From: an uncultured cyanobacterium
Lineage (GTDB): Bacteria; Cyanobacteriota; Cyanobacteriia; Cyanobacteriales; CAWUOF01
Assembly: GCA_963744145.1 (NCBI GenBank)
Contig: CAVUSO010000001.1
Location: forward strand, 3,648,001 to 3,712,000
DNA length: 64,000 nt
Reading direction: 5' to 3'
This document shows, in pieces, positions 30,212 through 58,505 of this stretch; the stretch's first letter is position 1; every line of letters begins with the position of its first letter. A program made the position numbers and the translations under genes. A model generated the notes under the pieces. That model worked only from the letters and a program-made list of their open reading frames with translations, made no database searches and was not told the DNA's origin.

Positions 30212-30589
30212 AAAGGAAATCTAGAATTTGGTCAACTAGCACGACAAATGTTTGAGATGATAGAACAGCGGAAATGCCGAGGGTTTGCCTGTGACTTGGT
30301 AATAGCTGAATTAATGATTAAGCCATTGCGTCAAGGATATCCCGAAATTGCCGAAGAATATGCTAGAGATTTGCCATCTTTTCCTAATCTAAAGTTTTGC
30401 TCCATAACTCAGAAGATTGTTATTGGGGCAGCTCGTCTGCGTGGTAATAGTAATCTGGGTTTGATTGATGCTTTGCATTTGGCGACTGCTGTAGAATTTG
30501 GATGTACGGTTTTTCTGACTAATGATGCGGCTCTTCGTCACCCCGATGTAAGGTTAGATATTTGGATGCTTGGAGATATTAACAGTTGA
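30212..30589 (+). pseudogene. 5'-truncated PIN/VapC toxin, duplicate of 33637-34083
   Basis: Near-identical sequence from GNLEFGQ onward. Confidence 0.85.
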
Positions 30590-30787
30590 TTTTCCTAGCT
30601 CTTTTACGATTATTCCGATCGCCCGATCGCCACGAAAAAGATTAAGTTAATTATAGGATAGCTGGGAGCGATCGCTGTGAAAAAGATAGTAATTAGATAT
30701 TTTTGCCCTGGTTGCTCAAGAGGAAATAAGGTTTAAAATCTAAGCATCGATAAATATATAAAGACTCATCCTATTATAGGACATAGA

Positions 30788-30965
30788 AACCTCAAGAATT
30801 ATTAGATTTTAGTGCTAATCGTCAAGCACTTAATAGTAATTCTCATCTTAATCAATACCAAATTATTCATTTAGCCACCCACGGTTTTGTTGATACCGAA
30901 CATCCAGAACTCTCTGGAATACTTTTATCTTTAGTAGATCAAGAAGAAAACTATGAAAACGGTTA
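30788..30965 (+). pseudogene. Isolated CHAT-domain fragment (second copy ~34282-34459)
   Basis: PQELLDF...[18 protein letters not shown]...ENG, nearly identical to ~52477-52655. Confidence 0.8.
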
Positions 30966-32114
30966 TACCAATTCTTGCAACTTTGACTACAGATAGTGTA
31001 GAGTATAATTTGAGTAGAGTTGAAGGAAAAATATGGCAGGAGTTTATCACCTAGACATTAAGGAAAGTGAAGCCGAGCTGAAGAAATTGCTCGCAGTGGA
31101 AAAAACTGGTCCAGGAAAAGAACGATTACAAGCATTATATCTACTCAAGATAAACAAAGCTAAAACAGTCACAGAAGTTGCTGAAATCTTGGGCAGAAAT
31201 CGAGTTACCGTTCAAGATTGGTTAGCCAAATACCGTCAAGGAGGATTGGCCAAATATCTGGGGAAAAAAGTGGGTACAGGTCCGACCGAGAAAAATTCCT
31301 GAATGGGCGGTAAAAAGTTTAGAAAAACGACTAAATGAAGAGGAAGGATTTAATAGTTATGGGGAAATTTGTCAATGGCTATCATCAACCCTTGGGATAG
31401 AAGCTAAATATAAAACCGTTCATCAATTAGTGCATTATAGACTAAAAGCCTCACCAAAAATCGCCAGGCCGAAAAGTACAGAACAGTCAAAAAAAAAGTT
31501 AGATAATTTTAGAAATCACTTGGCGGAGGACTTAGCTATGCTGAGTTGGTTTGCCATAACAGTAATGAGTTTAGGAGATAAAGTCAGATTTTTATGTCAA
31601 GATGAAACACGGATCGGCATGAAAACGATTAGTGGGAGAAAAATTACCATTCGTGGGGTAAAACCAATTGGTAAAGTGCAATGGAAATTTCAAGCGACTT
31701 ATATTTATGGCGTAGTAGAGCCAAAGACAGGGGAACATTTCTTTTACGAGTTTACTCATCTCAATAGTCAATGCTTTCAGATATTTTTAGACTTAGTAGC
31801 CGCGCATTTTTCGGATAGTATTTTGATCATTCAGTTAGACAATGGTGGTTTTCATAAAGCTAAAAAGTTGGTAATTCCTAAAAACGTTATTTTAATGTTT
31901 CAACCATCCCATTGTCCTGAATCAAATCCAATCGAACAGGTATGGCAGTATCTCAAAAAGGGATTGAGATGGGAATTACCAAGAAACTTAGATGAATTAA
32001 GACTTTTAATTAGTAAAGAACTAGAAAAGATGAATTCAAAAGTAATTGCCTCAATTACGGGACGAGCCTATATATTAGAGGCACTATCTGTAGTCGGCAT
32101 TTAGAGAATTGGTA
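30966..32114 (+). mobile_element. IS630-family element, 1149 bp, transposase frameshifted near 31281 (ORFs 31033-31302 and 31430-32104)
   Basis: TIR TACCAATTCT / AGAATTGGTA, TTA duplication, empty site at ~34457; DETR, LDNGGFH, PESNPIEQVW motifs. Confidence 0.92.
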
Positions 32115-32323
32115 TTACTCGGTGACCAACGCTTATCGCAACCATTGCAATTCTGGTTAGGATAGCATCTTGTCATGGATAATCATTAGAGCTATTTATT
32201 TGATGACTAATGCTAATTGTGACTATCAACAGCAGTGCGATCGCTCATAAATTTTCCCAGGATTTAAGCATGGTAAATCAAAATGTATGTTAAACTAAAA
32301 ATTAGTCTTTTTCTTTATTTAAT

Positions 32324-57000: not shown

Positions 57001-57280
57001 TTGCGAAACGGGATTAGGAAAGGAGATTAAGGGGGAAGGGATAGTGGGATTAACAAGGGGTTTTATCTATGCTGGTGCTCAACAAGTATTAGTATCTTTA
57101 TGGAGTATAAATGACAAATCAACTGCGGAATTCATGGTAAACTTTTACAGGAAAATACTGAAAGATAAGTTAACTGTATCCGCAGCATTAAGGGCAGCCC
57201 AATTAGAGATGTGGCAAGAGGGCAAATGGAAATCACCCTACTACTGGGCTACTTTTACGATACAAGGTGACTGGAATTAA
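54092..57280 (+). CDS. Secreted TPR-CHAT protein, 10 diverged TPR units plus a terminal unit
   Basis: 40-aa TPR periodicity; HFATHG, LSACETG, SPYYWA. Confidence 0.93.
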
Positions 57281-57801
57281 TCACTAAATGCTAGGTGTGC
57301 TAAAGATACAGAGGTAGAAGTAGCTGCTGAGTTAGTTGAGTTACAGAGGAATGTTGAACTGTTGCTGTAGTGCGGTCATGGCTTGATCTGCTGGAATACC
57401 TTCACCTCGATCAAAGCTTTCTAGTCCTTTGCGGATACCGATGATGGCTTCGAGGTAGTCGATTCGTTCTAGCAGTTGTTCGTAGGTATTGAGTTGGTGG
57501 TAGGGAGACGATTTGAGCGATCGCACCAAGCTAAGAAGATCGGACGAGCTGTTCGTCAGGGGTGCTATCGATTTCTTGGATCAGGAGTTCTTTGATGGTC
57601 ATCGCGGCATCTGGGGGAGGATTGATACTTTGATTATAACGAGTGTCATCGCCTTTTATTTTGTAGCAGGGTTCTTAATTTCTGGGGAATCGCTCTTTCA
57701 TTTTAGGCGATCGCTGCTCAGAAACAAGAAACAGCGATCGCTCATCGTACTGCTTGGTATTGGTCTGGGGTTGCGATTACCCTTTATGGTTAGTGGTGCG
57801 A

Positions 57802-57996
57802 TTAACGATGATCTTGTCCGATTTGCTCCAACGATTTGTTAGACCTCCGCTTGATTGGCAGTGTCACAACATTTTGCTGATGAGCATTCTGCTTATTTCG
57901 CAAATCGTTAAATATTGCATCCATGTCGTAGTCAAAGGATCTGGCATATTCTTCTCTGTATTTGTGAATTTCTTCGATAACTTTGTCTTTCGACAT
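57802..57996 (-). CDS. Small TA-associated protein, duplicate of 36771
   Basis: Part of the segment 57346-58315 that duplicates ~36318-37266. Confidence 0.62.
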   Translation of the reverse strand: MSKDKVIEEIHKYREEYARSFDYDMDAIFNDLRNKQNAHQQNVVTLPIKRRSNKSLEQIGQDHR

Positions 57997-58505
57997 GGCC
58001 GATTCTCCTGTAAATTAATATCCGAGCAACTGATATGGTGTACAGATAACTGGTAACTCGTAACCTAAGCTAGCACTAATTTGTGATAGCTTTTTCTGAA
58101 TTTGGGCATAGGGTTCAGTTAATTGTAGGGGTGTTCGCGTAGCGTGCCGTAGGCATAGTATTCGGGCGACAATTGAGCGATCGAACCAATAATATTATAT
58201 CCGAATGCTTCACCCTTCTTCTAAAGCCGAGATATCCAAAAATATTCTTAACTGAACCCTATTGAACTATAAATAGGCGATCGCGGAGCTGATAATTGGT
58301 GGTACGATCGCTTTTGCTCAAAGTTGTGCTAAATCTTAATGAATTTTGGGTTGAGGGAGTAAATCTAAACGATCTGAGAATGGCGAGTGATCGCTGATGA
58401 TTGGTGACGTGATCGCTTTTAGTCAAAGTTGTGCTAAATATCAATGAATGTTGGGTTGAGAGAGTAAGCCACCAGCATCTTAACCATGTGCCAAGTTTCT
58501 TCTAC

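Follow-up and report, generated by a model that had tools for sequence, protein, structure and literature searches.

Does the palindromic octamer HIP1 (GCGATCGC) direct the assembly of a gene island, or does it take part as one short identity among others? The question is raised by a 64,000-nucleotide stretch of the chromosome of an uncultured cyanobacterium (the window, on which all positions are numbered unless prefixed C1, which marks positions on the whole contig). Positions 30212-58320 of it hold an island of toxin-antitoxin-type genes and TPR-CHAT protease genes. An initial annotation proposed that the module boundaries of this island coincide with HIP1 sites, and that HIP1-guided shuffling generates a cassette-like array without an integrase. 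The host chromosome is a single 7.63-Mb contig with 39.4% G+C and 1.02 HIP1 per kb. The window has 101 HIP1 sites against 0.27 expected from shuffles; 74 of them lie inside the island (one per 380 bp), and to the left of it there is one per 1208 bp. We give a probability of roughly 60% to the reading that unequal and short-homology recombination amplified toxin-antitoxin and TPR-CHAT genes in tandem here, giving an array now in decay in which HIP1 is a favoured GC-rich microhomology and no dedicated cassette system operates. Crossovers at HIP1 are real but in the minority: HIP1 is found at about 1 in 10 island joints, and in the genome at large it stands at about 2% of repeat ends, about six times the level at neighboring offsets.

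For the island, matches of at least 88% identity and at least 50 bp were collected against the whole genome. Ends were kept if the next 30 bases were less than 45% identical and the site copy number was at most 6, and homologous ends were grouped into classes. Masked regions were an insertion sequence (IS, 30950-32125), two copies of a repeat resembling a miniature inverted-repeat transposable element (MITE; 37060-37214 and 58100-58290), and TPR arrays and stub repeat units (44260-44860, 49571-51295, 37851-37982, 33089-33218); the last of these masks removes the TPR-stub joint described below from the count. HIP1 lies within 2 bases of flush in 4 of the 49 masked breakpoint classes, where 0.59 would be expected at the local density (2.4 per kb, taken as 2.42 in the test; binomial P=0.003). 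The four are 33284/38045, the 37321 group, the 37445 group, and 38040/41361, and two of them are two faces of a single joint at 38040. The remaining 45 classes have no flush HIP1, for example the joints 34923 to 34924 and 38240 to 38241, those at 39615, 39763, 40317, and 46556, and that at 57345 to 57346; overlaps at such joints are 1-3, 4, 11, about 21-25, or 82 bp. Two further pairs, below the identity cut, also begin exactly at HIP1 (43521/48877 and 37437/53097). All told, homology ends exactly at a shared HIP1 at 36496/37445/42059/43811/49167/57525, at 37321 vs. 69961, at 38040 vs. 41361, at 43521 vs. 48877, and at 37437 vs. 53097. Listing the breakpoints against local HIP1 density, a check that the annotation had proposed, therefore bears out an excess of HIP1 above chance, but as a property of a minority of joints and not of module boundaries in general.

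The same procedure was applied to the whole genome, with self-comparison in 100-kb chunks, and yielded 9098 sharp low-copy ends in 3101 classes. The profile of HIP1 offsets around these ends is flat at about 5.5 classes per offset, with peaks at 0 (45) and -1 (24), the two offsets at which HIP1 forms the last 8 shared bases; HIP1 just outside the homology shows no excess (offset +8: 5 classes). With tandem arrays removed (2627 classes), 33 + 22 = 55 classes are flush against 9.3 expected from 4.65 per offset (Poisson P about 1e-24). Classes with at least two members give 40 flush vs. 7.8 expected, and a stricter cut (less than 34% identity beyond the end) gives 27 + 19 = 46 vs. 8.4 (4.22 per offset). 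Sequence past the ends is random-like, with 28% identity in flush classes and 26% in the others. Flush classes are spread over many loci, nine of them coming from the TPR array of the island; they comprise 39 direct and 15 inverted pairs, compared to 1426 and 1147 for the remaining classes. IS or MITE insertions with HIP1 target duplications were rejected as the cause of the peak, because a flush repeat is seldom flush at both of its ends. An AT palindrome, AATTAATT, is flush in 6 classes vs. 0.66 per offset, which are small numbers.

One HIP1 joint in the island concerns a 20-mer ending in HIP1, present in seven exact copies (32665, 36475, 37425, 42039, 43791, 49147, 57505; 0 expected). At four sites the sequence to the right of HIP1 runs, as first annotated, into the upstream block of TPR-CHAT genes; at the other three it enters the 5' part of a small gene on the minus strand. 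Three left-flank types combine with two right-flank types: L3-R1 (32665), L2-R2 (36475, 57505), L1-R1 (37425, 43791, 49147), and L1-R2 (42039). R1 is a conserved 120-bp block from HIP1 to the ATG of the TPR-CHAT genes, and an R1-like copy (78-81% identity) ahead of the DUF928 operon likewise starts at HIP1 (53097), as had also been pointed out. The shared core (about 42 bp) belongs to the coding region of the intact 88-aa gene 36305-36571 (minus strand), which has no match in Pfam or NCBIfam, its “antitoxin” label being a guess. One copy of this gene is frameshifted (57341-57529), one is truncated by L1 (41950-42138), and the other four sites keep only 42-bp or 28-bp relics. Upstream of HIP1 53097, similarity to the core is not significant (P=0.07). 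Since the R1-like block there starts at HIP1 with nothing core-like upstream, both parents of the core-R1 joint plausibly carried HIP1. The seven sites are not seven events but later copies of one or two old joints. Judged from the flanks, their history would comprise one right-flank switch at HIP1 and one or two left-flank switches away from it, followed by copying. Near-copies of the 20-mer with 3 mismatches also occur on the minus strand at 35095-35114 and 40488-40507, in duplicated 72-aa open reading frames (ORFs; 34996-35214 and 40389-40607). At 43492-43511, directly after ORF 43119-43493, a terminator-like hairpin has its stem around HIP1.

The rest of the island is a patchwork, as the initial annotation described it: repeats of at least 85% identity make up 72.5% of 30212-58320. 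Self-comparison resolves modules of 40 to 2268 bp with 85-99% identity, and further copies lie just past the window, at 67958-70818. The small gene pairs are of toxin-antitoxin type (MazE/AbrB + PIN, Phd, UPF0175 + DUF3368, four DUF433 genes, XisH/XisI, and clan AA aspartic proteases). The island further encodes three complete TPR-CHAT genes, at 43924-46554, at 49280-53002, and, behind a DUF928 gene, at 54092-57280. Gene debris consists of three N-terminal TPR stubs and two internal CHAT-gene fragments, and mobile elements of two IS630-family elements and two copies of the dispersed MITE-like repeat. Several small ORFs besides 36305-36571 have no Pfam or NCBIfam match either. The features are as follows.

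29383..30201, plus strand: IS630-family (DDE_3) transposase (Pfam DDE_3, E=4.4e-18) at the left edge; repeat homology from 30209
30209..30965, plus strand: 5'-truncated PIN gene and CHAT fragment; duplicate of 33703-34459 (99.3% over 757 bp)
30788-30965, plus strand: internal CHAT-gene fragment of 178 bp, 94-97% identical to 46028-46205 and 52476-52653
30966..32114, plus strand: inserted IS630-family element (HTH and DDE_3; Pfam) interrupting the 30209-32582 / 33703-34923 duplication; 11 more copies elsewhere in the genome at 99% identity or above
32149..32646, plus strand: DUF433 module (Pfam), one of five; others at 34491, 39157, 47127, and 69259 (outside the window), 94-97% identical
32658..33284, plus strand: 28-bp small-gene relic, HIP1, upstream block, and TPR stub 1 (flank L3-R1); 90% identical to 37418-38045 and 96% to 43784-44232
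33416..34083, plus strand: MazE/AbrB-like antitoxin and PIN toxin pair (Pfam), 93% identical to C1:5902-6846
34924..35420, plus strand: duplicated module, 98% identical over 497 bp to 40317-40813; the nearest HIP1 to its left joint (34923 to 34924) is 337 bp away
35535..36169, minus strand: clan AA aspartic protease gene (TIGR03698, E=2.1e-21) with an overlapping small ORF
36305..36571, minus strand: intact 88-aa small gene, from its translation (flank L2-R2), with HIP1 36487-36494 in the codons M-R-S-L
37077..37214, no strand assigned: copy of the dispersed MITE-like repeat, with more than 100 genome matches at 78-91% identity
37215..38045, plus strand: upstream mosaic and TPR stub 2, with HIP1 at 37224, 37322, and 37437; 94% identical to 43581-44239 and 48937-49697
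38040..38047, no strand assigned: HIP1 that itself forms a joint, the left module running to 38045 and the Phd module starting at 38040
38801..39157, plus strand: XisI 5' fragment, 98% identical to 46563-46919, ending in a 282-bp deletion joint
40803..41155, plus strand: TPR N-terminal fragment lacking the upstream block, 90% identical to 43905-44258; 11-bp overlap, not HIP1, with the preceding module, which ends at 40813
41894..42188, plus strand: L1-core-R2 recombinant, identified by its flanks, with the small gene truncated after the core; fused 62-aa ORF at 41950-42138
42355..43097, plus strand: XisH and XisI genes (Pfam E=4e-57 and 6e-47)
43521..43923, plus strand: upstream mosaic of HIP1-bounded segments (HIP1 at 43522, 43590, 43688, and 43803), with the 120-bp block reaching to the ATG
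43924..46554, plus strand: TPR-CHAT protein 1, 876 aa (Pfam CHAT E=7e-71 and TPR families)
46563..47660, plus strand: complete XisI and DUF433 module (Pfam), 97.5% identical to 68716-69792; undeleted parent form of 38801-39615
48096..48823, plus strand: UPF0175 and DUF3368 (PIN-like) pair (Pfam)
48877..53002, plus strand: upstream mosaic and TPR-CHAT protein 2, 1240 aa; 85-90% identical to 43521-46556
53097..53227, plus strand: diverged upstream-block copy before DUF928, starting at HIP1, 78-81% identity
53375..57280, plus strand: DUF928 gene and TPR-CHAT protein 3, 1062 aa (Pfam)
57346..58349, plus strand: duplicate of 36316-37296, 92.9% identical over 1004 bp, with the frameshifted small gene and the MITE-like repeat

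Orientation and module order are those of an array. All 54 repeat pairs in 30-71 kb (TPR-internal ones excluded) are direct and none is inverted, despite some small genes being on the minus strand; this points to unequal crossing-over or slippage and not to free shuffling at a palindrome that has no orientation. The unit order a-b-c-d-a-b runs across 30209-34923, where 30209-32582 minus the inserted IS repeats 33703-34923; the order i-j-k at 38241-39750 recurs at 67958-69927 save for a 282-bp deletion; and the upstream mosaic is the same for TPR-CHAT 1 as for TPR-CHAT 2. The island thus has the direct, clustered, high-identity segments and recurring module order of a tandem array. A 57-bp tract beginning at HIP1 (37321-37377) is 100% identical to 69961-70017, outside the window, within modules otherwise 93-97% alike, and may be a recent conversion or transfer patch. 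A second TPR-CHAT cluster occupies C1:1-21000 and C1:7624000-7634710, both ends of the contig, and spans the contig start if the contig is circular; its MazE-PIN modules are 93% identical to 33219-34163. Genome-wide, about 1.0 Mb (13%) lies in repeats of at least 88% identity, 0.2 Mb of it with ten or more copies.

Joints examined singly show how far HIP1 is involved. The XisI gene, annotated as cut just after HIP1, ends in a 282-bp deletion (39157-39615 matches 47202-47660) with at most 3 bp of microhomology; its ends fall 7 bp past one HIP1 and 13 bp short of the following one, so that HIP1 is nearby and not at the joint. TPR stubs 1 and 2, said to end at HIP1, share one common joint at which homology to TPR-CHAT 2 does stop on the last HIP1 base of the parent (49699); the HIP1 is degenerate in the stubs (GTGATCGC, GCGATCAC), and the right-hand parent has none there. 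At the three-way joint 38040, the left parent (33277-33284) has a degenerate HIP1 (6 of 8 bases), the right parent (41361) a perfect one, and the overlap is 6 bp. HIP1 in both parents is plausible for the core-R1 joint (small gene and 53097 block) and is seen at three joints genome-wide with 8-10 bp overlaps. The region upstream of the TPR-CHAT genes is a chain of HIP1-bounded segments, each with its own set of copies.

Read from the repeat map, the HIP1 positions at joints, the statistics, and the orientation, the recombination mechanism and order of events would be the following. A paralogous array of toxin-antitoxin-type pairs, XisH/XisI, DUF433, and TPR-CHAT proteases would have grown with orientation preserved, by unequal crossing-over between earlier copies, replication slippage, or template switching, and would later have decayed through deletions and the insertion of IS630 and MITE elements. 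Joints would exploit any short identity present, from 0 to about 80 bp. At a minority of them HIP1 would pair with the HIP1 of another sequence and leave one HIP1 at the joint; it would serve as crossover microhomology there because it is by far the commonest GC-rich 8-mer locally. For the 20-mer, one HIP1 crossover inside the small minus-strand gene probably joined the TPR-CHAT upstream block to a 42-bp gene relic, and this composite would then have been copied four times.

Of the rival explanations, the one that survives best makes HIP1 the target of a dedicated break-and-join activity (a nuclease or nickase at GCGATCGC or CGATCG, or a Chi-like signal) that shuffles cassettes. Cyanobacterial chromosomes would then have an activity that specifically breaks, nicks, or pairs HIP1 and makes it a true hotspot of non-homologous joining. 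Toxin-antitoxin and protease islands would turn over faster as a result, and the flush-offset profile would report on this activity in genomes generally. We consider this unlikely, even though the chain of HIP1-bounded segments upstream of the TPR-CHAT genes speaks for it, and plasmid recombination at HIP1 (PMC4390886) and a Chi-like, addAB-independent effect on transformation (bioRxiv 2024.09.10.611283) are described in the parts of those sources consulted. It is also supported in that the flush peak is particular to HIP1-type 8-mers, whose flush ratio is 6.2 vs. about 0.8 for AT-rich 8-mers. Of all pairs of identical 8-mers in the genome, 3.3% are HIP1 pairs. The 50 most frequent 8-mers unrelated to it, all of them AT-rich, together reach 0.96 times its pair abundance and give 29-30 flush classes where the background is 20-26. 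For the 200 most frequent (2.55 times), the figures are 89-92 and 63-83. Both excesses are much smaller than that for HIP1 (about 45). Against a dedicated activity stand the 45 of 49 island joints that lack HIP1, the scarcity of repeats flush at both ends, and the absence of inverted pairs among the 54 local ones, although the palindrome confers no orientation. Among joints with both parents identified and overlaps of 6-12 bp, HIP1 is present in 11 of 71, seven of them from the TPR array; the remaining 4 of 64 (6%) are not clearly above the 3.3% pair share. Joints with overlaps of at most 5 bp have a one-sided HIP1 in only 3 of 253 cases, all from one family, and one-sided breakage at HIP1 was rejected as the main route. 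Because one-sided joints are so rare, HIP1 joints are mostly two-sided (HIP1 with HIP1), which fits microhomology and not breakage at a single HIP1. No match to a Vsr-family nickase, a possible source of HIP1 nicks, was found in the genome. What holds of the proposed HIP1-guided shuffling is the flush excess over local density, in the island and in the genome, and the presence of HIP1 or a near-HIP1 in each parent where both are visible, the right-hand parent at the TPR stubs being an exception; about nine tenths of the joints do without HIP1, and the seven 20-mer sites count as one or two events. The one-sided family itself is located at C1:903636, 906325, and 907501, where the same sequence follows HIP1.

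Some of these results, and some others, weigh against the reading of the island as a decaying array joined at microhomologies. The smaller flush excess of the AT-rich sets means that HIP1 abundance alone does not fully account for the preference; the larger HIP1 excess suggests that HIP1, or GC-rich identity of any kind, is preferred, the evidence being mixed. Recombination at 8-bp identities in this organism would be deduced from paralogues. In a comparison of the mosaic at 43500-44100 with 41 genomes, only its own genome matched beyond short matches with E>1e-4; as there is no orthologous island among them, the events are not polarized. The one public run that contains the stretch (62% of sampled words) consists of low-depth short reads, with contigs of at most 890 bp among the pieces listed. 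These contigs cover 29 of the 30 bins of 30200-50199 with no conflicting joint, the only joints they include are paralogous to those at 57293-57346 of the assembly, and they neither support nor contradict the long-range order.

It appears improbable that the coincidence reflects chance or an artefact of alignments stopping on conserved 8-mers amid dense HIP1. Local density is indeed high, the seven flagged sites are not independent, and HIP1 recurs at multiples of 120 bp in the TPR arrays, which hold 17 of the 74 island sites, so that any repeat-unit boundary there looks HIP1-linked. The island test corrects for this density and still gives P=0.003, and the genome-wide offset profile, in which neighboring offsets act as their own control, peaks only at 0 and -1 without tandem arrays and with random-like identity past the ends; this profile largely refutes the chance reading. 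Misassembly of near-identical repeats is very improbable: repeats of 90-99% identity up to 1 kb exist and the only public run is the low-depth one above, but long reads or finishing are suggested by a single 7.63-Mb contig that resolves a dozen 99%-identical IS copies, the 2-10% divergence among paralogues suffices to distinguish them, and the short-read joints match the paralogous joints at 57293-57346.

How does the island compare with known systems? In the portions of the sources consulted, the role of HIP1 is described as open for some thirty years (PMC5861425). A HIP1-flanked 352-bp excision at smtB (PMC13756078), site-specific plasmid recombination in PCC 7002 (PMC4390886), and low-frequency illegitimate recombination (PMC4390886) are reported there, as is a small repeat inserted within HIP1 (PMC4390886); the original smtB (Gupta 1993; Robinson 1997) and plasmid (Akiyama 1998) studies are taken as cited in PMC13756078 and PMC4390886. 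Further reports are of HIP1 ahead of the breakpoints of a 188.6-kb inversion in S. elongatus (PMC9239245) and of a Chi-like, addAB-independent gain in transformation (bioRxiv 2024.09.10.611283). HIP1-to-HIP1 illegitimate recombination itself is therefore already in the literature; the literature examined, in the parts consulted, contains no genome-wide test of HIP1 at repeat boundaries, and one may exist. The Synechococcus events resemble those deduced here in that a crossover between two HIP1s leaves one and is infrequent relative to other events. They differ in that ours are read from natural chromosomal paralogues, include duplications and replacements and not deletions alone, and are accompanied by a measured genome-wide excess (55 vs. 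9.3).

Microhomology recombination, replication slippage, and unequal crossing-over build tandem gene arrays. Such arrays share with the island direct copies, overlaps of zero to tens of bases, and decay by deletion and IS insertion; here, by contrast, a single GC-rich palindromic 8-mer is found at disproportionately many joints. Integron cassette arrays also have co-oriented small genes, many of toxin-antitoxin type, and a short palindromic motif at some boundaries, and a single orientation is found here as well (54 direct, 0 inverted). Unlike integrons, however, the island has no integrase, as annotated: 73 ORF scans (46 + 27, flank ORFs of at least 110 aa) found no tyrosine or serine recombinase, their only recombination-type matches being IS630 and IS110 transposases and one GIY-YIG domain. 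Most boundaries have no attC-like site, 45 of the 49 breakpoint classes have no flush HIP1, many pieces are parts of genes instead of complete cassettes, and many boundaries cut genes. Chi sites, like HIP1, are short, over-represented, GC-rich, and linked to recombination; Chi is non-palindromic and stimulates exchange at a distance, whereas HIP1 here is the point where homology ends.

The footprint is quantitative and simple, and the same test is applicable to any complete cyanobacterial genome, where it can separate a dedicated mechanism from plain microhomology, whose effect should rise as the HIP1 density squared. The island itself would represent no new cassette system but a decaying array of paralogues of an ordinary kind.

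Among other observations, the MITE-like repeat is about 110-140 bp long, and its window copies (37077-37223 and 58108-58283) end a few bases before HIP1 (37224 and 58277). Housekeeping genes for enolase, ClpB, and HtpG flank the island. Adjoining ClpB, at 14228-17911 on the minus strand, is a gene for a 1227-aa protein with an extracellular contractile injection system (eCIS) core domain (PF13699, E=1.4e-29).

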